Made by a program: the position numbers and the translations under genes. A model generated the notes under the pieces. It did not search any database and had not been told where the DNA came from. It worked only from the letters and a program-made list of their open reading frames with translations. 64,000 nt of DNA from Candidatus Hydrothermarchaeota archaeon (lineage in GTDB: Archaea > CAYFZR01): NCBI GenBank assembly GCA_046760505.1, contig JBHIEG010000004.1:23111-87110 (forward strand), given 5' to 3'. This document shows, piece by piece, positions 14,539-64,000 of the stretch (position 1 is the stretch's first letter; every line of letters starts with the position of its first letter).

Positions 14539-14877
14539 TTACAGTTTACCCATTAAAATGAACGCTACTGCCAACCCATATAATGCTACTCCTTCCGCTA
14601 GACCAACCATAACGAGACTCCAAGCAACCATCTCTCTCTTCTCTGCTATAGCGCCTAGTGCTGCTGATCCTGCTGTACCAACGCCTATTCCTGCTCCGGT
14701 GCAGGCAAGACCGGCAGATAGGCCAATTCCTATTGCTATCCCGAGGGATTTTAAACCGTCCCCAACTGCGAGCTCTTCTATTTTTTCTTCTCCTTGTGCA
14801 AGTACAGGTATTGTGCAAATCAAAAATAGTATCAAAAAGGCATTTAAAATTACAATTCCTTTTAACATCCTTTTCAT
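14539..14877 (-). CDS. atpK: A/V-type ATPase proteolipid subunit K/c, single hairpin, H+-type, with N-terminal leader
   Basis: GAGIGVGTAGSAALGAIAEK..GLAEGVALYGL with one Glu; lacks the Q and T/Q Na+ ligands; follows a subunit I gene. Confidence 0.9.
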   Translation of the reverse strand: MKRMLKGIVILNAFLILFLICTIPVLAQGEEKIEELAVGDGLKSLGIAIGIGLSAGLACTGAGIGVGTAGSAALGAIAEKREMVAWSLVMVGLAEGVALYGLAVAFILMGKL

Positions 14878-14924
14878 CCAATCCCTCCTTTTTATTGCTT
14901 TTTCTTATTGGCAATCATTGCGTT

Positions 14925-16922
14925 TCATAAAGGTGCTAAGAATGTATATTTACGTATTGCCTTAAAGGCTTCGAATTTAGTTCCCCCCGCATCGTAAAAC
15001 TTGGAAAACCACTCGTAGTAATGAAGCCTTAGTGTCTGTATAAAGGACACAAAGCCCTCTATTCCGATTATGAAGATGTTTCCGATTAAGAATATTATGG
15101 ATTTCAAAAACAGCGGGGCTACCATTTCCATGAACATTACCATTATGCTACACAAAGCCGCGTGAACTAATGCAATTGCTGTAATTCTTACATACGATAT
15201 ACAGTTCGCCAAATATCTCGTTATAGCCTCGAAAGAACCATAAAAGCCCCACAAAAAAGAGGTATGCTCAGCGTACTTGGTGCCGATGCATATCACCAGC
15301 AAAGGCAAATACAGGAAGGGTATTGCTAGTGTATCTCTTAACAATAGAAATACATCTGTTCCGTGTTTTATAATCAATAATGTGCCGCCCCAAAGGAGCC
15401 AGAGACCGGAGAGGCTCCATGGAGGGAATAATGCTTCCAGATAATCTTTGTGCATGATGTGGTTTAGCATATTCAGTATTATACCCAGACTTAACTGTAC
15501 CAAGCCAATAACGATTGCAAATACAACCAGATTAGTACCGCTTTCTAAAGGTCTAAGCCAGAGAGGCTCTAATATTTCCAATCCGAATACGCTTCCGTAC
15601 AATAAACCTCCAAGCGTACCCATTATTCCACAAGCAAGCATAATCTTCCCAAATTTTTCTATAACTTCGCCGAATTTAAAATAAAAACCCAGCAAGAAAC
15701 CTAAAATTGCTATTACGAGCCCCTGTCCGACATCTCCAAACATTAGCCCATACATGAAGGGGAAACTTATTCCCATAAAGAAGGTTGGATCGATTTTGTC
15801 GTAGCCAGGGAGCCCGTATGTTTCTGTCAGGATTTCAACAGGCTTTATAGGGGGTGGATTTGATAGCATTGTAGGGGGGTTATCTCCTTTTTTTGGTTCA
15901 TCTATTCTAATGATGCCATATCCATTCGTAGTATTGTTAAAGATCTCTTTTAACTTTTCAATTAGATAATAAGGAACCCAACCGCTTATCAAGTAGCTTT
16001 TAGTAGTCTTACCGAATAGAGAGGTGATTTCATCAAGATTTTTTTCTATTTCCAACTGTTCTTTCATTAAGAGTAGTTCTTTTTCATTAACGTTTGCAAT
16101 TCTTTTTAATTCTTCTTTAAGTTTATCCTCTTCTACGGTAATATGAGATATGCTTTCTTCCAAAAAGTTCTCAGCGTCTTCCAATTCAAGATCACAAATT
16201 TTTCTTGGTATGCTAAGACTCTCAAAGCCTCTAGCGCGTAAAATTTTTCGTATTTCACTTTCATATTCATATAAACTAACAATTATGATGAATTTGGTTT
16301 TTTTATCGACATCCCCCGAGAACAAATAGAGAAAATCTTCTGTTGCTTCCTTAAGTTCTGGTTCAAGGAAATTTAATTGATCTTTAGGTACGGTTCCAGT
16401 TTCTAAGTAAAATAGTTTGAAACCCTCCAGATACTTTGGACCGATACCAAAATTTTCCAAAATGGATAAAACTTCTTGGCAAGTAAGAATATCGCTTCTC
16501 TCTTCTCTCAAAGCATCAAGTTTCGATGAAGTCTTTAAAACTTCCTTTTCTATGTTCTCAAACTTTTTTTCGAATCCTTCAAATAGTTCTAGAATAGACG
16601 TTTCTTTGATCGGTATTTTTTCGATTTCTTTTACTTCTAAGATTTTTTTTATTTTGTTGCTAAATGTTTTTTCTTCTTCAACTGACTGCAGAATATCCAA
16701 AATCCTATTTATCCTAGATAAGAGCCCTGATGTTTTATATCTTACCCAAGTAGATGGTGGAACTTCTATTCCTATCTCCTTAAGCATTTCTTGGGATTCT
16801 ATTTCCTCATGAACATTAATGAGATGAATTATTCCCAATTCTTTTAGTTCTCTCATTAGGGGATCTAACTTATCTTCAAGTACAATAGCGTGAACCTTTT
16901 TCATACGTATCGGTCTTAACAT
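14925..16922 (-). CDS. atpI: A/V-type ATPase subunit I (a), paralog 1
   Basis: MLRPIRMKK, PPTMLSNP, GLMFGDVGQG, SYVR essential Arg, QTLRLHYYEWFSKFY. Confidence 0.92.
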   Translation of the reverse strand: MLRPIRMKKVHAIVLEDKLDPLMRELKELGIIHLINVHEEIESQEMLKEIGIEVPPSTWVRYKTSGLLSRINRILDILQSVEEEKTFSNKIKKILEVKEIEKIPIKETSILELFEGFEKKFENIEKEVLKTSSKLDALREERSDILTCQEVLSILENFGIGPKYLEGFKLFYLETGTVPKDQLNFLEPELKEATEDFLYLFSGDVDKKTKFIIIVSLYEYESEIRKILRARGFESLSIPRKICDLELEDAENFLEESISHITVEEDKLKEELKRIANVNEKELLLMKEQLEIEKNLDEITSLFGKTTKSYLISGWVPYYLIEKLKEIFNNTTNGYGIIRIDEPKKGDNPPTMLSNPPPIKPVEILTETYGLPGYDKIDPTFFMGISFPFMYGLMFGDVGQGLVIAILGFLLGFYFKFGEVIEKFGKIMLACGIMGTLGGLLYGSVFGLEILEPLWLRPLESGTNLVVFAIVIGLVQLSLGIILNMLNHIMHKDYLEALFPPWSLSGLWLLWGGTLLIIKHGTDVFLLLRDTLAIPFLYLPLLVICIGTKYAEHTSFLWGFYGSFEAITRYLANCISYVRITAIALVHAALCSIMVMFMEMVAPLFLKSIIFLIGNIFIIGIEGFVSFIQTLRLHYYEWFSKFYDAGGTKFEAFKAIRKYTFLAPL

Positions 16923-51416: not shown

Positions 51417-52286
51417 ATGACGGTGCATCCAATGAAAACTCACTCGGTAAAGGCAGTAGTTTTCACTTCTCCTTATTGCGTTGTATGTGAGATCCTTGCA
51501 TCTCAGTTGATGGACATTGCCGATGAAATCAAGATTCCGGTTAAGGTATACATGGTTGACGTAGTTGAGGCTCCAGACATGGCAGGGAAATATTGCATAA
51601 GAACTGTTCCAACTACATTTATCGGTGAAGAAAGGTTCGAGGGAACAGTAGACGATGAGGATCTCCGTGAATTACTGACAACTGCATATTGTGAACGTCA
51701 GGCATCTCCAATTGATAAGGATGAGAGGCTTTTTCAGGTGGCAAAATCGTATCCCATGTACTGGTACGAACTTGCGAGCAAGATTAACGTAATGGTCAAA
51801 GACTCGATAAAAAAAAGTATTAAAGGTGAGGAGATGAGAAATATGGGTGATAAGGCTACCATGCATCTCATCAATACCTTAGGACTTTCATTAATTGAAG
51901 AGAGTAAAGGGAGGAAAATAGGACACATTCTGAGAAGATCTGCCAATTTAGTAGCGGATGCTTGTATTGAATCCATTGACCTTGAGAGAGTCGAATCTAT
52001 TGAATCTGAGATTAAAAAATATGCTGAGAGACTGGGATTAGGAAGAATTGAGTTAGTAAAGGAAACCCCTGAAAAGATGATATGCCGTGTTCATGAGTGT
52101 TATCTGTGTGTTTTTTTCAAAGATCAAAAATTTGAGTTAGACTTTCCTTATTGTTTGTGGATGGGCGAGTTTCTTTTAGCAGTTTTCTCCCATGTAGCAG
52201 AAGTTACCACGTTCAAAGAGATTCGGTGCACGGGTATGGGAGATCCGTACTGCGAATTCGAGCTGTATAAAAGAAAGAAAACATGA
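51417..52286 (+). CDS. thioredoxin-like plus V4R domain protein
   Basis: TSPYCVVC..TVPT thioredoxin fold; LGLG, VHECYLC and EIRCTGMGDPYCEF of V4R. Confidence 0.82.
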   Translation: MTVHPMKTHSVKAVVFTSPYCVVCEILASQLMDIADEIKIPVKVYMVDVVEAPDMAGKYCIRTVPTTFIGEERFEGTVDDEDLRELLTTAYCERQASPIDKDERLFQVAKSYPMYWYELASKINVMVKDSIKKSIKGEEMRNMGDKATMHLINTLGLSLIEESKGRKIGHILRRSANLVADACIESIDLERVESIESEIKKYAERLGLGRIELVKETPEKMICRVHECYLCVFFKDQKFELDFPYCLWMGEFLLAVFSHVAEVTTFKEIRCTGMGDPYCEFELYKRKKT

Positions 52287-52393
52287 TTCTTCATATTTCT
52301 ATAACTCTATAAATCTACGAAAAATTTGAAATGCGAAAATTTTAAATAACGATAAGGTCACCGATATACTCGCAAAAATTGATTTAAGGAAGG

Positions 52394-52639
52394 ATGAGTG
52401 GCTTAATGGGGAGTAAACCAAAATTTATCATTACTTGTGACTACTGTAAAAAAGAAACCGATAAAATCGTTGAATGTTACATGTGCGGAAAACTTACCTG
52501 TTTAGATTGCGAAAGAATACTTGCCGGACATTACTCCGATGGAAGACTTTTCGCACATATAGTGTGTCCCTCTTGCAAAGTTGAGGCGACATATCCTAGA
52601 TTCAAGGTTTACGAAGAAAAAGAGGAAAAGGGAAAGTAA
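52394..52639 (+). CDS. small double zinc-finger protein
   Basis: Four CxxC pairs (CDYC, CYMC, CLDC, CPSC). Confidence 0.75.
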   Translation: MSGLMGSKPKFIITCDYCKKETDKIVECYMCGKLTCLDCERILAGHYSDGRLFAHIVCPSCKVEATYPRFKVYEEKEEKGK

Positions 52640-52646
52640 TTCTGAT

Positions 52647-52838
52647 TTATTCTTTACTAAACTCTCTTATCACGGCATAGATATTTGTAAAAAAACCTGC
52701 AAAAAAGCCACAAATGAAACCGATTGTTGACCAGGTTGTACCGAATTTTTTTCCGATGAGGTACCCAATAAATCCAAATAAGATGCTAGATAAAGCCAAT
52801 TTTACCCCAAAAGTCATGGCTTGGATAGTTTTTCTCAT
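52647..52838 (-). CDS. AtpZ/AtpQ (ATP synthase gene 1)-like two-TM protein
   Basis: GVKLALSSILFGFIGYLIGKKFG..GFFAGF pattern; last gene of the I-K-C module; paralog of 60363..60572. Confidence 0.7.
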   Translation of the reverse strand: MRKTIQAMTFGVKLALSSILFGFIGYLIGKKFGTTWSTIGFICGFFAGFFTNIYAVIREFSKE

Positions 52839-52886
52839 TTTACATCTTTTCTCATTTTACATCATTTATCTTATATCGTTTTTATC

Positions 52887-53219
52887 TTACATCGTTTCGA
52901 TGTATAAAATTTCTATCATGAGTGATGTGAATGAAATAAAGAGGATGAGGCAGTATATTTTACCAATCGTGCTCTTTACTATCACTTTGTGCATAACAAG
53001 CACCACGCCCAATGAGGAAAGCGCGAGCCAGAGGGATATTCCGAAAGTGATGTAAAGTAGATTTACTTTTGCTAGGAGCAGCAACCCATAGAAGAACCCA
53101 ACCAAAATTAATTGTAAACTGAGGGTGGAAACTAAAAAAATATCATTTGCATGCTCTACTCGTGCCAAAATTTGTCTTTTTCTAAGTCGTTTCAAGAGCC
53201 AGATATTTGTCGATTTCAT
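52887..53219 (-). CDS. small hydrophobic membrane protein (possible UncI/AtpR-like)
   Basis: About three TM helices; lies between the C subunit and the AtpZ-like gene; start uncertain. Confidence 0.5.
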   Translation of the reverse strand: MKSTNIWLLKRLRKRQILARVEHANDIFLVSTLSLQLILVGFFYGLLLLAKVNLLYITFGISLWLALSSLGVVLVMHKVIVKSTIGKIYCLILFISFTSLMIEILYIETM

Positions 53220-54342
53220 CCGGGCTCAAGCCCTCCTGTATTCCCGTTAGTATACTGCGGACACAATCAATCTCAATCTCTTTTATTAGTAAGAAGGCGA
53301 TTATTGGACCGGCTCCAAATGATCTTTTCAGTGAGATATCCCGCACTCTACTAATCAAAATTTTTTGTAGGTATTTCTCAATTCCAACGTAGTCTTTATC
53401 TCTCTCAAATTCCTTAATGGCTTGTGTTATGAACTCCCCATAGGGAGTAGCAGTTAATAGATTTAATATATCCTCTATCTTATCCAGCTGGACAAGGCTG
53501 TTCATGGTTTCTGGATCGATTTCAAATCCTGGGTAAATTAAATTCTCTTTTATGGTTTCTGGTGGTACCTGATCCACTTTTAATCTGATGATAAGTCTTA
53601 TATTGGTAATATCTATAATGGTCCCGATTAGAGTGAGAAGATCTTCTCTGTCCTCCCCCTTAATGTCTTCTATGAGTCGATGGCATTTCGAGAAATAATA
53701 TCTAAATAAAAGAGTTGTTAGTGGCGATATCGAGCCGGTTTCTCTCCAGTCTCGAACACCTTCTGTAATCAGTGCAGCGTACTCTGTTTCGTCTAACTTG
53801 GGCAAAATTTCACCTAACTCTTGAGTCTCGTACATTGATTTTACTAGATCAAAATCGATTGTTCCTATTCTGATTAGATCGACTGGCATTTCAATGATTC
53901 TTTCCTTTGAATATGCCTCTAATAGGACTCTTTTAATGTTTCTGATATCCCATCTTGCTCTAACAAATGAATCAAAAAAGCCCCTTAGGTGCTGAGGAAT
54001 AACAAGGTCAATTTCCTCCTGAGTATGTGCCAGATATAACCTCAGACCCACTTCGTATCCGTTTTCCAGACTCAGGTAGGTGGGATAGTCCAAACCTTCG
54101 AGGCTGGATATGAACACTGGAACGTTATCAGCCTCTGTTAATTCCTTGATTTTGGAGGAAGAAAGGAGTTTGCCTTCCATTGTTCTTATACCTGAAACGG
54201 GATAGAAATAAGGTATTTTTCTGTACAGCCATTGTACTGTCGGGGCTATTAGAATTGCAATTAGCATGAAACCTAGGAAAATAACAATTATCAGAGCTGC
54301 CTCGAATCCCACTAGTTCTACCAGATAATCAAACAACCCCAA
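53182..54342 (-). CDS. atpC: A/V-type ATPase subunit C (d), paralog A
   Basis: N-terminal TM; YPVSGIRTMEGKLL; WDIRNIK; IDITNIRLIIRLK; FLLIKEIEI. Confidence 0.85.
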   Translation of the reverse strand: MGLFDYLVELVGFEAALIIVIFLGFMLIAILIAPTVQWLYRKIPYFYPVSGIRTMEGKLLSSSKIKELTEADNVPVFISSLEGLDYPTYLSLENGYEVGLRLYLAHTQEEIDLVIPQHLRGFFDSFVRARWDIRNIKRVLLEAYSKERIIEMPVDLIRIGTIDFDLVKSMYETQELGEILPKLDETEYAALITEGVRDWRETGSISPLTTLLFRYYFSKCHRLIEDIKGEDREDLLTLIGTIIDITNIRLIIRLKVDQVPPETIKENLIYPGFEIDPETMNSLVQLDKIEDILNLLTATPYGEFITQAIKEFERDKDYVGIEKYLQKILISRVRDISLKRSFGAGPIIAFLLIKEIEIDCVRSILTGIQEGLSPDEIDKYLALETT

Positions 54343-54352
54343 TCAGATGCAC

Positions 54353-54829
54353 CTATCCGAGTAGACCGGAGTTCAGTAAGATCATGACAGCCATGACAAA
54401 TCCCAGTATAGCGAAGAATTCTGCCATTATTCCAAATACCATGGATTTTCCGAATACTTCTTCATTCTTCGCAGTGGCGCTTATGCCCCCTGCACAGGTT
54501 ATTCCCTGCCCTATTGCTGTTAGACCTGCTACTCCCATGCATAAACCCGCAGCAATAGCAGCGAGGCTTACTGGACTTGTAATCTCCTTTCCTGAAAGAA
54601 GGGCGCCAGAAAGAATGAATATACCTACCAAAAATCCGTAGATCCCCTGAGTTTGAGGTAATTGCTGTAGTATTAGGGATTTACTGAACTTCTTCGGATC
54701 TTGCGCAGTAACTCCAGCTGCAGAGGCTCCAGCAATACCGACACCCAGTGCTGCCCCGAATCCCGCAATTCCAACTGATAGTCCAATACCTATGGTTGCG
54801 AGAGCAGCAGTTTGCGTCAATTCAACCAT
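54353..54829 (-). CDS. atpK: A/V-type ATPase subunit K/c, two hairpins, one Na+-type site
   Basis: LPQTQGIYG, AIGQG, MAEFFAILG; GAGGTG RBS before ATG 54829. Confidence 0.92.
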   Translation of the reverse strand: MVELTQTAALATIGIGLSVGIAGFGAALGVGIAGASAAGVTAQDPKKFSKSLILQQLPQTQGIYGFLVGIFILSGALLSGKEITSPVSLAAIAAGLCMGVAGLTAIGQGITCAGGISATAKNEEVFGKSMVFGIMAEFFAILGFVMAVMILLNSGLLG

Positions 54830-56945
54830 AGTCACACCTCCTTAATTTTGTATATTTTCTTACAGCGCGGAAGGGAATGTACTTATCTCCTCCACCTTCA
54901 TAGAACTTTCCAAATAATTCTGCATAGTGTAATCTCAATGAATGGATGAATCCACCGAGAGAATTTAATCCGAAACTTGTCAAGTGTCCTATGAACAATA
55001 TCAAAAATACCAAGAAAAGTGCAAGTAAACCAAAAGGAGATTTCATTCCATTGCTTATTATACCAAAGATGCTTGTGTATCCACCTATCTCTGCCAATCC
55101 CATGGTGGTTGCCAAGATATAAGCAGTTACATTTACAGCTAGAGCCAAGCCACCCGTTGCCATTGCAAGCGCCAGAATTCTTGAATAAGAGATCAGATCG
55201 CCAAGAAGTCCGGTACAATCGAAAAAGCCTAGTGGACCTCCGCGTACTATTACTAATGCAGAGCCAACCAAGAGCAAGTAGAGTCCATATTTGAAGGCTT
55301 TTTCAGTGATAGCTTTAACTCCAAACAACTTGAATAACACAAGTATTAGGCCTATTTCGAGTGTCAATAATCCAACTTGACCTATAGCTTCTCTCAAGTT
55401 TTTATTCTCTAACGCATTCTTGAAAGAAATGAGAATCCCTATATCCATATGAACGGCTCCCAAAAGTACTGAAACTACTAATACTAGCAAAACCGGACTT
55501 ATTGGATGGCCTAAAAACAGTAATGACTCGGTAGCAAAGGGATCTACCCATATAGGCTTTGTTTCAAAGTTTAGGAAACGTTCTGAAAAATCTCCAAGGT
55601 AACTGCCTGTTAGAATACCGAAGAATATTGCTGAGAGTCCGCCTATTATAAGGATACTAGAAACGTCGTTTATACTCTCGTTGATTTTTCCATGACCCTT
55701 TTTCACGAGCAGGGCAAAAATTACGGCCATCAACCCGTAAATAGCATCTGTTAGCATAAAACCAAAGAATACTGTGAAGAAAACTGCTATTATCAAGGTT
55801 GGATCGAGTTCTCCCTTCTTTGGTAGTCCAAACATTCCGGTCAGCATCTCGTAAGGCTTTATAAGCTTGGGATTCTCAAGCAGAACCGGAGGCTCTTCTT
55901 CAGAGGAACTTTGGGCTTCCTCTACCAATACACATCCATCGGTAATTTCCTCGGATAGTTTCTTTACCCTATCAAGATTTCTCTTTGGACACCATGCCTC
56001 AAGGATAACAGCGTTTTTTGTCTCAAGAAGGAAAGGGGTTATTCCTTCTCTCTCAGCCTCTATGACAGAGATTTCATGGTTTAATAGCATGTTCCACTCA
56101 TTTTCTTTGACAATTTCGTATGCCGATTCAATTATCCTCTTTTCTTCGGCCTCTAGTTCATCAAGGGCTCTTTCTATTTTCTCTACAGACTCTGAAGGCG
56201 TACCTTCAACTTCTGGCAATTCAATAGACTCAAACTTAACTTTCAACAAAAAATCGTTTACCACTTCCATAAACTCATTGGTTGTTATTACAACCACTAG
56301 TGATCTTCCGTCTATCTCTTCGGCGTGGAAAAATAAGCATTCATTTGTTAAAGATCTTAAAATTTCTAATTCTTTCACTTTCTCCAGAGATATAGTACCG
56401 ATCCAGATTTTGCAAAACTTGTAATTTTCTTCCTTTAAATACTCAACATTTACATCTAAAGGTTCCAGCAATTTTAGTGTATTTAAATAATCCCTAAACC
56501 TGTCTTTTTCAGAATCGATTTCGTTCAGTCTTGTCTCAAAAACACTTACCTCATTCTCGATTTCCGATATGCTGGTCTCTAGACGGTTAATCAGCTCATC
56601 TACTTCAAGTTTGTCTATCTCTTCCCCTTCTATAACTCCTGGAAACAAAGCCGAGTAAATGTTGTTCAGCGCTGCTCGAACTTTTGATTTTAAATTTCCT
56701 TTTTTTGTTTCAGAACCTTTTATATCTTTTATTACATCGAAAAATGTGAGTATACGCCTGAACCTCATTGAGAAGTGCAGAAAAATACGCTCTTCACCCT
56801 TTGATTCTTCAGCAAATTCTGATAATTCTTTGCTGGTTTCTTTAACTTGGAGAAGCCCTTCTTCGTGCAGCGCTCTGATGAGGGGGGCAGCAAAGTATTT
56901 ATGCGTAACTATTACTACCTTTTTCATCTCTGCAGGCCGCATCAT
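54822..56945 (-). CDS. atpI: A/V-type ATPase subunit I (a), paralog 2
   Basis: MRPAEMKK, PPVLLENP, GFMLTDAIYG, SYSRILALAMATGG, HSLRLHYAELFGKFY. Confidence 0.93.
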   Translation of the reverse strand: MMRPAEMKKVVIVTHKYFAAPLIRALHEEGLLQVKETSKELSEFAEESKGEERIFLHFSMRFRRILTFFDVIKDIKGSETKKGNLKSKVRAALNNIYSALFPGVIEGEEIDKLEVDELINRLETSISEIENEVSVFETRLNEIDSEKDRFRDYLNTLKLLEPLDVNVEYLKEENYKFCKIWIGTISLEKVKELEILRSLTNECLFFHAEEIDGRSLVVVITTNEFMEVVNDFLLKVKFESIELPEVEGTPSESVEKIERALDELEAEEKRIIESAYEIVKENEWNMLLNHEISVIEAEREGITPFLLETKNAVILEAWCPKRNLDRVKKLSEEITDGCVLVEEAQSSSEEEPPVLLENPKLIKPYEMLTGMFGLPKKGELDPTLIIAVFFTVFFGFMLTDAIYGLMAVIFALLVKKGHGKINESINDVSSILIIGGLSAIFFGILTGSYLGDFSERFLNFETKPIWVDPFATESLLFLGHPISPVLLVLVVSVLLGAVHMDIGILISFKNALENKNLREAIGQVGLLTLEIGLILVLFKLFGVKAITEKAFKYGLYLLLVGSALVIVRGGPLGFFDCTGLLGDLISYSRILALAMATGGLALAVNVTAYILATTMGLAEIGGYTSIFGIISNGMKSPFGLLALFLVFLILFIGHLTSFGLNSLGGFIHSLRLHYAELFGKFYEGGGDKYIPFRAVRKYTKLRRCDYG

Positions 56946-56961
56946 CTAAGTACACCATGGA

Positions 56962-57378
56962 CTAAAGTGCCTTCAACTCGACCTTGAACACATTTTCAAC
57001 CTGCCTTATGTCATCGGCTAATTTTTCAAGGTTTGCTTTATCAGGTCCGGAGAGAAATCCTTCCCAAATACAAGCTTCTTTTGCATAGCAAAATCCAGTT
57101 GTATGTATGATCTTCACTTTTGCATCTGCCAGCTTCAATTCTAACTTGTGAGTGGTGTCGTAGATATCCTTTGCAACGATCCTCAATTTGTACAGTTCTT
57201 TATCGATCTTCATTAATCTAACTTGCTTCCTCTCTGGAATTAATATGGTAGCCACTGCATCTCCATCCTTTAGATTTAAGGCTTCCAGAATATTTTTAGG
57301 GATTTCGATTTTTCCATCTTTAATTTCACACCTCTCTCCTACGGATATCTCCGGAAACTCTTCAACTTTCTTTTCCAT
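56962..57378 (-). CDS. AbrB/MazE-like plus ACT-like domain protein
   Basis: DGKIEIPKNILEALNLKDGD (AbrB signature) followed by a beta-alpha-beta-beta-alpha-beta pattern. Confidence 0.7.
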   Translation of the reverse strand: MEKKVEEFPEISVGERCEIKDGKIEIPKNILEALNLKDGDAVATILIPERKQVRLMKIDKELYKLRIVAKDIYDTTHKLELKLADAKVKIIHTTGFCYAKEACIWEGFLSGPDKANLEKLADDIRQVENVFKVELKAL

Positions 57379-57791
57379 ACTTCCACCTCTAAACTTTTAA
57401 TCAGGTCCAAATAATCTTCTCCAGCTTTTGAAAGAACTATCTTATCGTTTTGTCTCTCGACAAGACCCAAAACCTCCAACATTTTAGATCTTCTTTCTAT
57501 AAGACCCCTAGGCAGGCCTGTTAGAGTTTCTATTTGCTCTATATCATGAACTCCTGTTCCCGCGGTTTTAAGTATTAATGTCCCTGCTTCACCGAGTCTT
57601 ATTTCAGTTTTTCTTAGTAAATTCTCAATGCGCTTAAACTGGAGTGGCAGGAGGAGCCAATAACCCACAATTGATGCGATTGTTGCTATAATTACTGAGG
57701 CCCATATCAATACGTTTAGACCAAAATAAGATATGAGCAATACTATCACGAAGATGCCAATACTTCCCATTGATGCGATGTTGACTCTCAT
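57339..57791 (-). CDS. membrane protein with C-terminal winged-helix domain
   Basis: Two TM helices, then IEQIETLTGLPRGLIERRSKMLEVLGLV..LSKAG. Confidence 0.72.
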   Translation of the reverse strand: MRVNIASMGSIGIFVIVLLISYFGLNVLIWASVIIATIASIVGYWLLLPLQFKRIENLLRKTEIRLGEAGTLILKTAGTGVHDIEQIETLTGLPRGLIERRSKMLEVLGLVERQNDKIVLSKAGEDYLDLIKSLEVEVWKRKLKSFRRYP

Positions 57792-58008
57792 TGAAATTTT
57801 CCCCCATGTTGTTATTTCAAGTTTGATCTAAAATAATATATTAAATTTTTCGTATATAATGCCCTGATAGTTGTAATTAAAATTAAGAACAGTTGATAGA
57901 ATACCTTATACAAAAAACCCCGAGTCTCATCGTTTTTTCTCCAAAAAAAGTTGTATGCATTTTAAAAAAAAATTGTAAGAAAATTATATAAAAAATGTAC
58001 AAAGGAGT

Positions 58009-59478
58009 TTATTCTTCTTCCACCCTCTTTATTAGTTTTACAATACTCTCTCCTTTTCTGGTTAATTTTAGTCCTTTTTCCGTTTCTGCAACCAAACCCA
58101 TCAATCTGAGCACTCTCAGTCTTTCTTCTATTCTATGTCTCGGTAATCCGGTGGTGGACTCTATTCCTTCAATGTCTTTAGCCCCATAGTGGATTGACAT
58201 TGTTATAAGGCGACCCATCTCGCCTAGGTCAATATCAAGCCTGGTTCTAATTGCTTCCGGCTCAAACAATTCTATTACTGGAACTGCCACTCCATATTCA
58301 ATGAGTTTTTGAGTTTGTTCAGAGTCATATCCCTCTTCCTTGCATTTAAGAACTGTTCTAATATCATTAATTTCATTCTCCCTTTGAAGTAGATAGTTTA
58401 CGAGCGGTGAAATAGAAAAAGGCTGCCTTAAGGAGAGTGCCAACTCAGTCTCCAACAAGAATTCATCAAGTTTTCTTTCAAAAGGAATTATTGACCCGAT
58501 TTCTTCGTATTCGGGCAATAGTTCACTTATTATTCTACCGTAAGGAGTTCCCTCGAGACCGCTTATGACCTCTTCTACGTTATATGCCTCTGCTAGGCTC
58601 AAGAGAACCTCAGGCATTATGTTATAGCCAATCGGTATGAGCAGACTTTTTATGTCTTCCGGAGAAACGTTCTCTGACTTCAGTCTTAGCAGATTCTTTA
58701 TATTTTCTATGTCAATCCATGTTCCGAGGAATACCTTGAACATCTTTAGCTCATCTGTTAAACCTGATGCAACCAGCGACCAAACTTTAAAGTAGTAATA
58801 CCTGTCTAGAGCACTTTCCAGGACCAAAAGAGATTTTTTCTCTTCATAATCCGGTAAAACTTCCTTGAGAACATTCGCATACTCCGTACCCTCGAGTTTT
58901 GAGATGAATTCTTCCATACTCCTAGAATCAGCAAGGGTTTCCAACTCAGTTAGGTCAAGATCGCCAATGGGTATCATCGTATTGATATCTGGCATTACAT
59001 TTGCATGGATCGCCCTGATTATCTTTTTTAGGTTTTTTATTTCCCATCTCTTCGTCCATGCAGCAACAATCCTTTTGGCATCTTCTGGAGAGTAATGTAA
59101 AATCTTCTCGTATACATCCTTCAAACAGCGGTTAAACATAATTTCAGCATCGAATAATCCCTTGCTTTCCGCTAAAACTTCTTCTGTATATTTCCCATAT
59201 TCTGTATCGCCCAGGTTTACCATAGCTTCAATCAAAGAATCAGATTCTAAAAGTTGATTGAATTTAGGTTTGCCGATGTATTTTGCTTCCATTGCCCGAA
59301 TTTTTGCGTTAAGCAAAGAATATGGTGCAATATCTGTCACGAACCTAATAATGGGTATAATGATGATTATAAAACACAGAATCGCCAAAAGAAGAACTAG
59401 AAAGAAGAAAATTTGAGGATGGTCTGAAAATCCAAAAACTTCTGCAATGGCTAGGTAATCTTCGATACCGCCTACCAT
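58009..59478 (-). CDS. atpC: A/V-type ATPase subunit C (d), paralog B, fused to a C-terminal winged-helix domain
   Basis: PYSLLNAKIRAMEAK, WEIKNLK, LEGTEY, IDIENIKNLLRLK, ENEINDIR, then IESTTGLPRHRIEERLRVLRLMGLV..LTRKG. Confidence 0.88.
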   Translation of the reverse strand: MVGGIEDYLAIAEVFGFSDHPQIFFFLVLLLAILCFIIIIIPIIRFVTDIAPYSLLNAKIRAMEAKYIGKPKFNQLLESDSLIEAMVNLGDTEYGKYTEEVLAESKGLFDAEIMFNRCLKDVYEKILHYSPEDAKRIVAAWTKRWEIKNLKKIIRAIHANVMPDINTMIPIGDLDLTELETLADSRSMEEFISKLEGTEYANVLKEVLPDYEEKKSLLVLESALDRYYYFKVWSLVASGLTDELKMFKVFLGTWIDIENIKNLLRLKSENVSPEDIKSLLIPIGYNIMPEVLLSLAEAYNVEEVISGLEGTPYGRIISELLPEYEEIGSIIPFERKLDEFLLETELALSLRQPFSISPLVNYLLQRENEINDIRTVLKCKEEGYDSEQTQKLIEYGVAVPVIELFEPEAIRTRLDIDLGEMGRLITMSIHYGAKDIEGIESTTGLPRHRIEERLRVLRLMGLVAETEKGLKLTRKGESIVKLIKRVEEE

Positions 59479-59510
59479 AACTTTACACCGCTTGTACCTT
59501 TGAGTGGAAT

Positions 59511-60239
59511 TTAACCAAACAGCCCAGTGCCGTACATTATTAGCAAAGCAATCAACAGGCCAAATATCGCGAAAGTTTCAGACATAACTGCCAATACAAT
59601 GCTTTTTCCCATTGTAGCGGGCTCTTTTGCAGCCGCTCCTATTCCACTTGCCGCAGTTATTCCCTGTCCTATTCCCGATAGTCCTGCTAGCCCTACAGAA
59701 GCACCTGCTCCAATTGTTGCGAGTCCTACCATGGGTGAGAGTGCTTTACCCATCGTACCTATGATACCAGCGAAAACAAGCAATAGTATAGCCGTGAGTA
59801 ACCCATAGATTGCCTGGGTCTCAGGCAATACGGAGAATACCATTCCCTTACCGAATACCTCTGGATTCTCTGATGTTGCCCCTATTCCACTTGCCGCTGC
59901 TATTCCTTGTCCTATGGCAGATAAACCTGCCATACCAACTCCTATTCCTGCTCCAAGAGATGCCATAGCCATAAGAGCGGAAAAACCCTCTCTTGGAGCC
60001 TTCGTTATTAGTCCAGTCCCTAGAAGTATTAATATCGCTGTCAATAATCCATAAATGGCTTGAGTTTGTGGCAGCGCTGAGAATACGATTGTTACGCCAA
60101 ATTTCTCTGGGCTCTCCGATATCACGGTGGCTCCTGCAGCCCCAGTTATACCTACACCAATTCCAGATCCTACCGCTGCAATTCCCATTGCAAGACCTGC
60201 TCCAACTGCTGCAAGAGCGAGATTAACATCCAATGGCAT
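59511..60239 (-). CDS. atpK: A/V-type ATPase subunit K/c, three hairpins, two Na+-type sites
   Basis: LPQTQAIYG, LPETQAIYG, MSETFAIFG; IGQG in hairpins 2 and 3. Confidence 0.93.
   Translation of the reverse strand: MPLDVNLALAAVGAGLAMGIAAVGSGIGVGITGAAGATVISESPEKFGVTIVFSALPQTQAIYGLLTAILILLGTGLITKAPREGFSALMAMASLGAGIGVGMAGLSAIGQGIAAASGIGATSENPEVFGKGMVFSVLPETQAIYGLLTAILLLVFAGIIGTMGKALSPMVGLATIGAGASVGLAGLSGIGQGITAASGIGAAAKEPATMGKSIVLAVMSETFAIFGLLIALLIMYGTGLFG
59777..59855 (-). repeat. 79-bp exact block shared (inverted) with 63442..63520
   Basis: The reverse complement TTCGGTAAGGGAATGGTATTCTCC..CTATTGCTTG is identical in both K genes. Confidence 0.9.
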
Positions 60240-60362
60240 ATTTTCATTCCCCCGTTACGGCAGATGTTGTTACAAACAGTTCACAAAATTTATATTATTA
60301 AAGATTTCGGAGTAAAATTAAAGATTGTAGTAAAAAAATTAGAACATAATGTTGTAAAAAAA

Positions 60363-60572
60363 TTAAATATCCAATGAGAGAATCCTTTTGATCCCTATGA
60401 AGAATCCAAACAACAATCCTATAGTTAGACCTAAAACAGTTTGAATTTCACCGAACTTTCTCCCGATAAAATATCCCAAAAATGTGCAAATTACAATGGT
60501 GAATGCTAATTCCGTTCCGATTGTTATTCCCCTTATCCAAGTTATGGTTTTTTTGTCTGGTCTAGAGGCCAC
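60363..60572 (-). CDS. AtpZ/AtpQ (ATP synthase gene 1)-like two-TM protein
   Basis: IGTELAFTIVICTFLGYFIGRKFG..GLLFGFFIG. Confidence 0.75.
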   Translation of the reverse strand: MASRPDKKTITWIRGITIGTELAFTIVICTFLGYFIGRKFGEIQTVLGLTIGLLFGFFIGIKRILSLDI

Positions 60573-60661
60573 TTTTATCCCGCTCTATAACTCTTTTATG
60601 GGCGATAAAATATAAATACCCATTCAATAAATTACAACGTAGAAGAGACGGGGGCTTAACA

Positions 60662-60976
60662 GTGGTTGTAGAGGCATTGATGACCATAAAAAAAGTCGAA
60701 AATGAGTGTCTAAAGAAAATAGAAGACGCAGAAAAGGAAGCAGAAAGAATGATTGAAAATGCTGAGATAGAAGCTTCTGACATGCTCAAAAAGGCTGAAG
60801 AAGAGGCAAAAGATCATGTAAGGAAATTAATCGAAAAAGCGAGAGAGGAAGCAGAGGAAGAAGCCTCAAAAATACTCAAAGAGGGTGAAAAAGAGTCAGA
60901 AGAATTAAAAAAAAGAGCTATTAGAAAACTCGATGAGGCCGTTGATGCAATAATAAAGCCAGTTCTTGGACTTTGA
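60662..60976 (+). CDS. atpH: A/V-type ATPase subunit H (G-like peripheral stalk)
   Basis: E/K/A-rich coiled coil ending LDEAVDAII; directly before a subunit I gene. Confidence 0.85.
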   Translation: MVVEALMTIKKVENECLKKIEDAEKEAERMIENAEIEASDMLKKAEEEAKDHVRKLIEKAREEAEEEASKILKEGEKESEELKKRAIRKLDEAVDAIIKPVLGL

Positions 60977-60997
60977 ATATTGTTCAGAGGGAAATCT

Positions 60998-63046
60998 ATG
61001 TTTAGACCAGCGAGAATGCAAAAATTAAAAGTAGTTACTTTAGACGTGTACAAACACGATCTTGTAAGGAACCTTCATGAACTGGGAACTGTCCAACTCT
61101 ATGATCTTTCTGATAAAGTTTCGGCACCTGATTTGGCAAAGATCGTTAGAAAAGATGAACCCTCGGAAATCGGCCGCAAGGTTTCCCCCCTTCTCATGAG
61201 GATCGGAAGGGTTTTATCTATTTTTGAGTCTGCCAAACCAGAACAAAAAATAAATCCTATAAAAGCATTTTTTGCTCCTAATGAGCCCAAAAAAATAAAA
61301 ATTAAAAAGAGGGAGCCTGAGGAATTAATTGAAGAAACAAACAAAATATTGAATGATATCGAGCCGTTAGTTCAAGAACTTGAGAGAAACTTGAATTCTT
61401 TAGAAGAGAGAGGAGAACAGATTGATGCTCTTCTCAAAGTGATGGACGAGTTAAAACACATAGATGTGAATTTAGAGTTACTCTATGATGGTCCTTATGT
61501 ATCTATCTTATGTGGGTCGTTGCCCGCTGGCAAGGACTTAACCAACGTAATACTCGCCGAAGCAAACGGTGAAGCAATAACGAAAACAAAAATAATCGAC
61601 GAAGAGCATGCTATACTGGTGGTTGCCGTTTCTAAGGAGTATCTCGAAAATGTTAGTGAAGTTTTGAGAAGAGCGGGATTTGAGGCGTTTGAATTACCTT
61701 CTGGTCTAAGAGGCCATCCTTCCAAGGTAACTTCAGATTTAAAGGAAGAATTGATTGAAATAAACTCAAAAAAAGATAAAATCCTTTCCGAGATAAGAGA
61801 ACTGTCTGATAATTGGGAGGATAAATTGCTGGCAATTCAAGAAGAACTTACGATAGAGAAGGAGAGAGGAGAAGTAAGTATGAACTTCTTGAAGACTGAA
61901 AATGCCTTTATGTTGGAAGCATGGGTTACTGCAAAGAACTCTCCGGAAACTGTGAGGAAAATAGAGCATATAACGGATGGACATTGTGTAATCGAAATTT
62001 CAAATCCGATTAATGAGCCTGTAGAGGAGATTCCCGTACTCTTTGATAATCCAAAGATATTCAGGCCTTTTGAACTCTTAACCGAAACTTTTTCACCTCC
62101 AAGATACGATGAAATCGATCCTACGATAATATTTGCGATTGCATTTCTAATCTTTTATGGCTTGATGCTTTCTGATGCTTTTTACGGTATCATAATAGGA
62201 TTGATAGGTTTTGGACTTTTCAGAGGGGCTGGAAAATACAATATGGGAGTAAGAAAGTTCAGCGTAATACTAATGTCCGCAGGAGCCAGCACGGTGGTTA
62301 TAGGAGCCTTGTTGGGAGGTTGGCTGGGAGATCTACCAACAAGGTTGCATGAGGCGGGAATAATCCCTTTTAAGATACCCGCGATATGGTTTGAACCTCT
62401 TGGAAAAGAAAATATAAGTTTTCTTGGAACGGTTCAGAGCCCCCTAGTTGTTTTTCTTTTAACGGCATTGATATTCGGGCTTATCCACATAAATATTGGA
62501 GTTCTAATAGGTCTCTACCTCTCCGTAAAAAGGAAGCGATATATGGAGGCGGTAAGCGAACATTTGTGGTTATGGTTTTTCCAACCGGGCATGTACGTGC
62601 TGGTGACCTCCACGTTGTTTGGTTTGGAGTTTAGCCCTTTCATAAAGAAAATTGCAGTCCTAATAACAATAGTATCTCTGTTGATGCTTTTGGTTAGACC
62701 AGAATTCCCTTACATAGATCCAATGGGCTTTTTTGATATTACGGGTTATATAGGTGACTTTTTATCCTATGCAAGGTTACTTGCATTAGGATTGGCCACT
62801 GGAGGAATTGCTATGACGGTAAACATGCTTGCCGGAATGGTAAAAGCAACTCCTTATATTGGATTGATATTAATGGTAATAGTATTCATCGTGGGTCACA
62901 CATTTAACATGGCGATGAACGGACTTGGAGCCTTTGTTCATTCGCTTAGGTTACACTACGTAGAATTCTTCGGAAAATTTTATGAGGGCGGCGGCAAAAG
63001 ATTCACGCCCTTTAAAGTAAATCGAGAGGTTACAGTAGTGGAATAG
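60998..63046 (+). CDS. atpI: A/V-type ATPase subunit I (a), paralog 3 (probable main operon)
   Basis: MFRPARMQKL, GLMLSDAFYG, SYARLLALGLATGGIA, HSLRLHYVEFFGKFYEGGG. Confidence 0.95.
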   Translation: MFRPARMQKLKVVTLDVYKHDLVRNLHELGTVQLYDLSDKVSAPDLAKIVRKDEPSEIGRKVSPLLMRIGRVLSIFESAKPEQKINPIKAFFAPNEPKKIKIKKREPEELIEETNKILNDIEPLVQELERNLNSLEERGEQIDALLKVMDELKHIDVNLELLYDGPYVSILCGSLPAGKDLTNVILAEANGEAITKTKIIDEEHAILVVAVSKEYLENVSEVLRRAGFEAFELPSGLRGHPSKVTSDLKEELIEINSKKDKILSEIRELSDNWEDKLLAIQEELTIEKERGEVSMNFLKTENAFMLEAWVTAKNSPETVRKIEHITDGHCVIEISNPINEPVEEIPVLFDNPKIFRPFELLTETFSPPRYDEIDPTIIFAIAFLIFYGLMLSDAFYGIIIGLIGFGLFRGAGKYNMGVRKFSVILMSAGASTVVIGALLGGWLGDLPTRLHEAGIIPFKIPAIWFEPLGKENISFLGTVQSPLVVFLLTALIFGLIHINIGVLIGLYLSVKRKRYMEAVSEHLWLWFFQPGMYVLVTSTLFGLEFSPFIKKIAVLITIVSLLMLLVRPEFPYIDPMGFFDITGYIGDFLSYARLLALGLATGGIAMTVNMLAGMVKATPYIGLILMVIVFIVGHTFNMAMNGLGAFVHSLRLHYVEFFGKFYEGGGKRFTPFKVNREVTVVE

Positions 63047-63057
63047 GAGGAGTTGAT

Positions 63058-64000
63058 ATGCCAATGAACCCAAATGTTGCCCTTGCAGCTGTAGGAGCAG
63101 GTCTTGCAATGGGACTCTCTGGTATTGGATCTGGAATTGGTGTAGGTATAACTGGGGCTGCTGGAACCGGTGTAATAGCTGAGGATCCCGGTAAATTTGG
63201 CACGGCTATTGTATTTCAGGCACTGCCACAAACTCAAGCCATTTATGGATTATTGACAGCGATATTAATACTTCTCGGAACCGGTTTACTGGCGGGAGCG
63301 CCAAAAACAGATTTCAATTTATTAATGGGTCTTGCCTCTTTGGGAGCAGGAATAGGAGTTGGTATGGCAGGTTTGTCTGCCATAGGACAGGGGATAGCAG
63401 CGGCAAGTGGAGTTGGAATTACAGCAGAGGCGCCGGAGATGTTCGGTAAGGGAATGGTATTCTCCGTATTGCCTGAGACCCAGGCAATCTATGGGTTACT
63501 CACGGCTATACTATTGCTTGCCTCTACCGGCGTCCTCGCCGGCGCAGGAAAAGTAGCACCTTACGAAGATTTTTACTTCCTTGCGGGCCTAGCTGGTGTA
63601 GGCGCAGGAGTTGCAGTAGGTTTAGCAGGCTTATCTGCCATAGGACAGGGGATAGCGGCCTCAGCAGGCATTGGAGCCTCCAGAGAAGTACCTGAAATAT
63701 TCGGTAAGGGAATGGTATTCTCCGTATTGCCTGAGACCCAAGCAATCTATGGGTTGCTGATTGCCATACTGCTACTAGTATTTTCAGGACTTTTAGGAAC
63801 GATTAAAGAGATTTCTCCCTTGGTTGGAGTTGCTTTAATCGGAGCAGGTGCTTCTGTAGGATTAGCGGGACTATCGGGAATAGGACAGGGAATAACTGCT
63901 GCCGGAGGAATCGGTGCGGCTGCAAAAGAGCCCGCTACAATGGGTAAAAGTCTAGTCCTCTCGGTAATGTCCGAGACGTTCGCGATATTTGGCCTGTTAA
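63058..64000 (+). CDS. atpK: A/V-type ATPase subunit K/c, four hairpins, three Na+-type sites (3' end outside window; not in ORF track)
   Basis: Hand translation of 314 open codons from ATG 63058 (GGAGGAG RBS): LPQTQAIYG, LPETQAIYG, LPETQAIYG, MSETFAIFG. Confidence 0.92.
   Translation, partial: MPMNPNVALAAVGAGLAMGLSGIGSGIGVGITGAAGTGVIAEDPGKFGTAIVFQALPQTQAIYGLLTAILILLGTGLLAGAPKTDFNLLMGLASLGAGIGVGMAGLSAIGQGIAAASGVGITAEAPEMFGKGMVFSVLPETQAIYGLLTAILLLASTGVLAGAGKVAPYEDFYFLAGLAGVGAGVAVGLAGLSAIGQGIAASAGIGASREVPEIFGKGMVFSVLPETQAIYGLLIAILLLVFSGLLGTIKEISPLVGVALIGAGASVGLAGLSGIGQGITAAGGIGAAAKEPATMGKSLVLSVMSETFAIFGLL
63442..63740 (+). repeat. 41-bp exact direct repeat within the 4-hairpin K gene
   Basis: TTCGGTAAGGGAATGGTATTCTCCGTATTGCCTGAGACCCA at 63442 and 63700 (258 bp = 86 codons apart). 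Confidence 0.9.

Follow-up and report, generated by a model that had tools for sequence, protein, structure and literature searches.

Exact DNA blocks shared by two inverted ATPase proteolipid genes of a Hydrothermarchaeota archaeon: evidence for patchy gene conversion

The analysed window is a 64,000-nt stretch of DNA from a Candidatus Hydrothermarchaeota archaeon (genome G000, assembly GCA_046760505.1), corresponding to positions 23111-87110 of contig C4 (JBHIEG010000004.1). Close to its end lie two inverted genes for the proteolipid (subunit K/c) of an A-type ATPase: K3 (59511..60239, minus strand), which encodes three hairpins, and K4 (63058..64000, plus strand, truncated at the contig end), which encodes four. 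The two genes share a series of exact DNA blocks separated by diverged loops. With high confidence, we read these blocks as footprints of recurrent, patchy, short-tract interlocus gene conversion between old paralogs, acting on helix segments only. We found a mosaic structure of the two genes, homogenisation of their synonymous sites within the genomes of two species, and variants that shift K3 towards K4.

Exact blocks and concerted evolution of K3 and K4

Both genes belong to the PF00137 family by its defining features, helical hairpin repeats with a carboxylate in the second helix. The domain matches the 242-aa product of the K3 open reading frame (ORF) in three stretches (E = 4.5e-48) and that of K4 in four. 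The motifs in the second transmembrane helix (TM2) of successive hairpins are PQTQ (without a carboxylate), PETQ and SETF in K3, giving two carboxylates (Glu in two of three hairpins), and PQTQ, PETQ, PETQ and SETF in K4, giving three (Glu in three of four hairpins).

The longest exact match measures 79 nt and breaks if extended by one base on either side. Its K3 copy (59777..59855) encodes TM2 of hairpin 2, FGKGMVFSVLPETQAIYGLLTAILLL, and its inverted partner lies in hairpin 2 of K4 (63442..63520). It is followed in length by a 53-nt block in TM2 of K3 hairpin 1 (60022..60074; partner 63223-63275) and a 35-nt block in TM1 of the same hairpin (60136..60170; partner 63127-63161). Shorter inverted exact matches between the genes comprise two of 32 nt (59923-59954 / 63343-63374 and 59653-59684 / 63868-63899) and one of 29 nt (59608-59636 / 63916-63944). 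In addition, the first 41 nt of the K4 copy of the longest block are repeated directly on the plus strand (63442-63482 and 63700-63740, 258 nt apart). The second copy of this repeat is located in TM2 of K4 hairpin 3, inside an inverted, out-of-register 43-nt block in which hairpin 2 of K3 matches hairpin 3 of K4 (59815-59857 / 63698-63740). A preceding sequence-only reading of this stretch had reported the 79-, 53- and 35-nt inverted blocks and the 41-nt K4 repeat, and all of its coordinates proved exact.

Overall nucleotide identity between K3 and K4 is 78.7% (723 aligned columns). In 5000 shuffles of these columns the longest identical run averaged 23 nt and reached at most 62, compared to the observed 79. 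When the permutation was restricted to codons for residues that both genes share, the run of 26 identical codons seen between K3 and K4 remained exceptional (p = 3e-4), so the blocks are not a mere by-product of protein conservation. RNA-RNA pairing between the K3 and K4 mRNAs was considered and rejected, since the genes are inverted and their transcripts carry identical, not complementary, segments.

The history of the two genes was traced by comparison with G001, the only other genome of the lineage, which belongs to the same genus and brings the phylum-level set to two genomes. Its contig C22 is colinear with C4:87102-75426, with 81.5% nucleotide identity over 11.7 kb, and carries the genes in the same order and orientation as G000: K4, I, H, atpZ, K3, C' (a paralog of subunit C/d), I, K2 and C. 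As K3 and K4 are syntenic in both genomes, their duplication is older than the species split. The sequence-only reading had offered recent duplication or ongoing conversion as the source of the identity. Recent duplication is excluded by the synteny of both genes in both species together with the divergence of the loops, which differ at 31-36% of nonsynonymous and 67-85% of synonymous sites and are thus near synonymous saturation. Ongoing conversion was borne out by the sister-species comparison and by the variants found in other samples. The scan of synonymous divergence along the genes, proposed by the same reading as a check, gave values that were low in blocks within a genome and high between orthologs.

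The K3 orthologs share 99% protein identity (pN 0.009, pS 0.47), and the K4 orthologs are similarly constrained (pN 0.020, pS 0.51); judging from these rates, both genes are under strong purifying selection. A four-way codon alignment of K3 and K4 from both species comprised 726 columns, 80 of which separate K3 from K4 in the pattern of old paralogs. At 33 sites the genes evolved in concert, with K3 equal to K4 within each species and the species differing. The control pattern, in which K3 of one species matches K4 of the other, as reciprocal exchange would produce, was found at 6 sites (binomial p = 1.4e-5). The concerted sites cluster in helix-coding blocks (alignment columns 87-99, 168-216, 312-345 and 387-462), and the gene-specific sites are located in loops and linkers.

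Identity at third codon positions followed the same trend: it was 0.636 and 0.599 for paralogs of the same genome versus 0.479 and 0.512 for paralogs of different species, with orthologs at 0.628 and 0.620. Among 229 polymorphic sites, the longest run shared by K3 and K4 spanned 15 sites in G000 (permutation p ~1e-4) and 10 in G001 (p ~5e-4), while the same test for the cross-species paralog pairs returned p = 0.56 and 0.26. The longest exact K3/K4 runs are 79, 53 and 35 nt in G000 and 56, 44 and 36 nt in G001. They occupy partly the same segments with species-specific letters; the 53-nt segment of G000 (60022-60074), for instance, corresponds to the 56-nt exact block of G001 with different letters. 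Across species, exact runs do not exceed 20 nt between paralogs or 30 nt between orthologs. The presence of species-specific exact runs in both genomes indicates that the process has been active in both lineages since they split. Comparison of hairpins 2 and 3 of K4 revealed 7 concerted and 0 control sites in the TM2 block, and conversion probably takes place between these hairpins inside K4 as well.

Variation among samples was followed in four runs (X1-X4) of one hydrothermal vent metagenome study that contain the locus, seen as k=31 contigs. The K3 gene of run X2 shows the letters of K4 at 59904, 59907 and 59922 (variant patch 59904..59922, minus strand). The patch covers all three sites at which K3 and K4 differ there and is joined to a K3-specific loop, corresponding to a conversion tract of 19 to 69 nt. 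In the species of G001, five single-nucleotide polymorphisms (SNPs) over 9.5 kb distinguish metagenome contig L043 from C22, an N-containing insertion aside. Four of these SNPs fall in the 729-nt K3 gene, three are common to a second metagenome contig, L044, and two of the four K3 SNPs shift K3 to the K4 state. Short N-containing indels relative to G001 are present in L043 (near C22 6177) and L044 (near C22 2558-2569 and 3318); they probably reflect masked or unresolved bases and were excluded from variant counts.

G001 also possesses a fifth K gene, split over the end of C22 (L035 12491-12652) and the start of contig C3 (L036 1-395). Over the last 162 nt this gene matches K4 at 94% identity, with a perfect match of at least 119 nt up to the contig end, while identity to K4 is no more than 67% over the first 389 nt. 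The gene sits between the K2-C cluster, with which it is convergent, and a thioredoxin-like gene; G000 is contiguous at this position and carries no counterpart there.

The conversion would proceed by homologous repair with the paralog as template. RadA dependence of this repair is plausible from the gene content of the genome, a RadA gene being present on contig C11. Conversion would persist only in transmembrane-helix segments, where the same residues are needed and the DNA is similar enough to pair. The diverged loops would halt heteroduplex extension, as described for the tuf genes (PMC5485169), and selection presumably purges converted loops. Loops and linkers remain gene-specific, likely owing to contacts with different partners, as K3 has its own C/d paralog.

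Several points weigh against conversion as the explanation. The comparison set is limited to two species and two metagenome contigs of the G001 species (L043 and L044), and all compared sequences come from metagenome assemblies. The X2 variant, the sole form seen in that run, rests on a single 127-nt k=31 contig (depth 37.8) from one run. In the G001 species, the other two SNPs of K3 (positions 423 and 426 of the gene) differ from K4, and no donor was identified for them. Finally, the direction of transfer and its non-reciprocity are deduced rather than observed: sites of the reciprocal pattern are unclustered and the X2 allele shifts K3 towards K4, with K4 of X2 only partly covered. As to further relatives, a scan of genome contigs returned only the G001 contig and two bacterial proteins (37% and 67% identity over parts), and a scan of metagenomes returned only L043 and L044. 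Among the 120 listed of 370 protein-search matches, this genus was represented by P0006 (K3, 99%) and P0013 (the window's own K4) only.

Inversion, hairpin number and other explanations of the identity

Beyond conversion, the sequence-only reading had raised the possibility of an invertible switch. In such a scenario, crossovers between the inverted K3 and K4 would flip the atpZ-H-I segment and both orientations would coexist, changing the genes that follow H-I or the composition of the rotor. The geometry would permit this, as the inverted 79-, 53- and 35-nt exact blocks flank a 2.8-kb segment (60240..63057) that comprises the AtpZ-like gene, the intergenic region with both promoter regions, H and I. 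Moreover, up to 50% of recombination events between the inverted tufA and tufB genes of Salmonella invert the intervening DNA (PMC6735719). A flip would be expected to yield the gene order H-I-K-C'... on one side, which looks canonical, and atpZ-K-E-C-F-A-B-D on the other. However, since the flipped segment carries both promoter regions together with atpZ, H and I, all genes would still be transcribed, and the flip would not constitute an on/off device.

The data offered this switch no support. A single orientation was found in all four independent assemblies, representing two species (G000 C4, G001 C22, L043 and L044), and the 6 sites of the reciprocal pattern are scattered, without a visible swapped segment. 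The repeats are coding homology and not short recombination sites. The earlier remark that no recombinase is visible also held: none of the eight genome hits for tyrosine recombinases (PF00589) lies on C4 or on C2, the contig that continues the K4 operon, and neither does the single hit for serine recombinases (PF00239), which is located on contig C104. A scan of 13 proteins of the region 51417-64000 detected no recombinase domain. No chimeric contig or joint was present among the locus contigs of the four runs, a search with little power at k=31, as these contigs break inside every exact block of at least 31 nt and are blind to orientation, rare inversions and 258-nt indels; in all four runs a 3016-nt contig (60141-63156) ends at the 35-nt blocks. 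An invertible switch is therefore improbable, and rare inversions would lie beyond the reach of the k=31 contigs.

The same reading had proposed that out-of-register events could add or remove a hairpin and so provide a genetic route to a change in rotor stoichiometry. K4 exceeds K3 by precisely one hairpin of 86 codons. The junction falls within the repeated TM2 block, and the difference fits a past unequal event. However, the hairpin numbers of 3 in K3 and 4 in K4 are kept in both species, and no close relative with another hairpin number, length variant or chimera was found among the 120 listed of 370 database matches. Crossovers between K3 and K4, whether in register or between hairpin 2 and hairpin 3, would only swap the three- and four-hairpin forms between the two sites; for a hairpin to be gained or lost, the direct repeats inside K4 would have to recombine with each other.

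Selection on the nucleotide sequence itself, through codon usage, mRNA structure or translation pausing in helix-coding parts, could in principle keep the blocks identical without recombination. The blocks do coincide with the most conserved peptide segments, namely the GxGxGxG helix and the ion-site helix. However, orthologs reach a pS of 0.59-0.71 in these blocks, on a par with the rest of the genes. Across TM2 of hairpins 1 and 2, synonymous difference was 0-0.20 for paralogs of the same genome, 0.59-0.71 for orthologs and 0.52-0.71 for cross-species paralogs. In the 79-nt block there were zero synonymous differences within G000, compared to a pS of 0.61-0.71 between orthologs. On the evidence of these values, bases in the TM2 blocks vary freely from one species to the other and are made uniform again inside each genome. 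Furthermore, an internal control was restricted to codons whose residue is shared by all four sequences. Among the variable sites of such codons, 20 of 26 were concerted in the two TM2 blocks, compared to 5 of 34 in the last hairpin, which is equally conserved (Fisher's test, p = 1.4e-6). If codon preference had shifted across the lineage, the effect would be even over the length of the genes and not limited to blocks. Nucleotide-level constraint is accordingly a very unlikely cause of the identity.

Equally little credence can be given to an assembly artefact, in which reads of the two paralogs were collapsed or chimerically joined to create the identical stretches. The sequences are indeed metagenome bins (G000 consists of 142 contigs with 5.67% contamination), and contigs break inside K genes in both species. 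Nevertheless, independent k=31 contigs (records 2, 6 and 7 of run X1 and record 28 of X4) reproduce, at 0-1 mismatches, the K3- and K4-specific flanks and extend 28-30 nt into the 79-nt block, and a block of 79 nt would be too short for bubble removal between two 55-mer anchors. G001 comes from a separate assembly; we take the 'k119' that opens its contig name as the assembler k-mer size. G001, L043 and L044 show the same mosaic with species-specific letters. The flanks from the four runs and the mosaic of the separately assembled G001 contradict assembly collapse, which the sequence-only reading had named as a potential refutation. Short-tract gene conversion between K3 and K4 thus remains the explanation we favour.

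The ATPase locus and its wider gene set

Contig C4 is 87110 nt long, and the last base of the window is also the end of the contig. K4 extends beyond this end into contig C2, whose own end carries the final 55 nt of C4 (63946-64000) in reverse complement. Joined at this overlap, the complete K4 gene measures 984 nt (327 aa). An overlap of 55 nt is the commonest in the G000 assembly (44 of 56 directed end overlaps), and the words of this overlap are present in no other contig of the bin besides C2. The break could stem from strain variation or from an unbinned K-like contig.

K3 and K4 head two divergently transcribed clusters, separated by an AT-rich intergenic region of 89 nt between the AtpZ-like gene and H. 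On the plus strand, H (60662-60976) and the stator gene I (60980-63046) precede K4, which is followed on C2 by E, C, F, A, B and D. The operon thus has the canonical order H-I-K4-E-C-F-A-B-D and unites the genes for stator subunit I and for the head subunits. The minus-strand cluster consists of an AtpZ/AtpI-like gene (60363-60572, minus strand; PF09527, 34.4 bits versus a cut-off of 26.6), K3, the 489-aa C/d paralog C' (58009..59478, minus strand) directly downstream of K3, two small ORFs, a second I gene, the two-hairpin K2 and another C/d paralog. K3 is flanked by the AtpZ-like gene and a C/d paralog, and its cluster has no A or B gene of its own. A member of PF09527, a family named for F-type operons, thus stands first in the K3 cluster, within an archaeal A-type system. 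AtpI assists c-ring assembly in some bacteria.

C' shares 49% identity with the C subunit of the K4 operon and is the likely partner of the K3-specific loops. Both close C/d paralogs (window 58009-59478; L042 10048-11238) start with a hydrophobic, probably membrane-spanning N-terminal segment. The C-terminal extension of C', about 100 aa long, resembles by eye the C-terminal part of a neighbouring 150-aa ORF (57339-57791); it is possibly a winged helix and has no Pfam match. As regards the ion, the ETQxxY sequence of K3 and K4 fits the Na+ motif E[STQ][STQ]xxY quoted in a preprint (bioRxiv 10.64898/2026.10.01.756066) and would be consistent with Na+ specificity.

The ATPase genes of the window occupy four regions (14539-16922, 53182-56945, 58009-60572 and 60662-64000). 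G000 has a single A and a single B gene. In contrast, it encodes four K genes, all located on C4, with hairpin numbers of 1, 2, 3 and 4. Besides K3 and K4 these are K1 (14539-14877), with one hairpin, and K2 (54353-54835, minus strand), with two. The three I genes of the window (14925-16922, 54822-56945 and 60980-63046) show pairwise identities of 30-34%, and the genome contains four C/d genes, one of them on contig C86. This gene set suggests that one catalytic head may be combined with several different membrane sectors.

A far-reaching reading of this arrangement, which we consider unlikely, is that K3 and K4 form alternative or mixed rotor rings for one A1 head. Conversion would keep their helices identical, the loops would be matched to the C/d paralogs, and occasional flips of atpZ-H-I would re-link H-I to K3/C'. 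K1 and K2, together with the three I and four C/d genes, would then serve as exchangeable membrane sectors. K3 carries two ion sites per three hairpins and K4 three per four. If the reading were true, exchangeable membrane sectors would let one enzyme alter its ion-to-ATP ratio, and identical stator-facing ion-binding helices would let both the K3 and the K4 ring run against the same stator. The larger question raised by the locus concerns its genomic setting more than the repeats: four rotor genes with one to four hairpins and three stator genes accompany a single catalytic head.

Comparison with known systems

Conversion between K3 and K4 is a new example of a known, ordinary evolutionary process. 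The closest parallel is provided by tufA and tufB of Salmonella enterica, inverted paralogs described as evolving in concert by RecA-dependent gene conversion (PMC5485169, PMC6735719). Both systems consist of two inverted protein-coding paralogs on one chromosome. The tuf genes likewise undergo non-reciprocal transfer in short tracts that are stopped by diverged sequence, non-reciprocity being our deduction in the case of K3/K4. In both systems the same recombination could also invert the DNA between the genes; such inversion has been demonstrated for tuf, but not for K3/K4. The tuf genes are near-identical over their full length and 761 kb apart, whereas K3 and K4 are 79% identical and 2.8 kb apart. 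Unlike tuf, K3/K4 appear to convert in patches of 30-80 nt, keep gene-specific loops and differ by a whole hairpin.

Long-lasting concerted evolution in archaea has been described for mtrA, mtmB/C, mtbB/C, glnB and histones (PMC6053082, PMC4632066). Like K3 and K4, these are paralogs encoding parts of complexes or homo-oligomers and were homogenised after speciation. However, the listed cases are all from methanogens, and the homogenisation of K3/K4 is sub-genic and extends to repeats within one gene. The K family is absent from the main text of the prokaryotic survey in PMC6053082, which has no ATPase subunit among its seven archaeal genes and contains neither 'ATPase' nor 'ATP synthase'. Word searches of open-access literature yielded no paper describing conversion between ATPase K/c genes, nor any describing an archaeon with several K genes that differ in hairpin number.

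The K genes would thus offer a clean case of sub-genic concerted evolution in archaea, with helices homogenised by recombination and partner-binding loops kept apart by selection. Trees of multi-hairpin K subunits may mislead if conversion is ignored. The K genes also break short-read assemblies, K4 being cut at a contig end in G000, G001, L043 and L044.

With respect to hairpin number, the K subunit of Methanopyrus kandleri is described as having 13 hairpins (bioRxiv 10.64898/2026.10.01.756066). K-family proteins of about 240, 320 and 400 aa are common in public data, as judged from the 120 listed of 370 matches. K3 itself has the build of three hairpins with two carboxylates that Methanocaldococcus jannaschii K is said to have. 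M. jannaschii and M. kandleri are both described with a single K gene, whereas G000 has four, two of which very probably exchange DNA.

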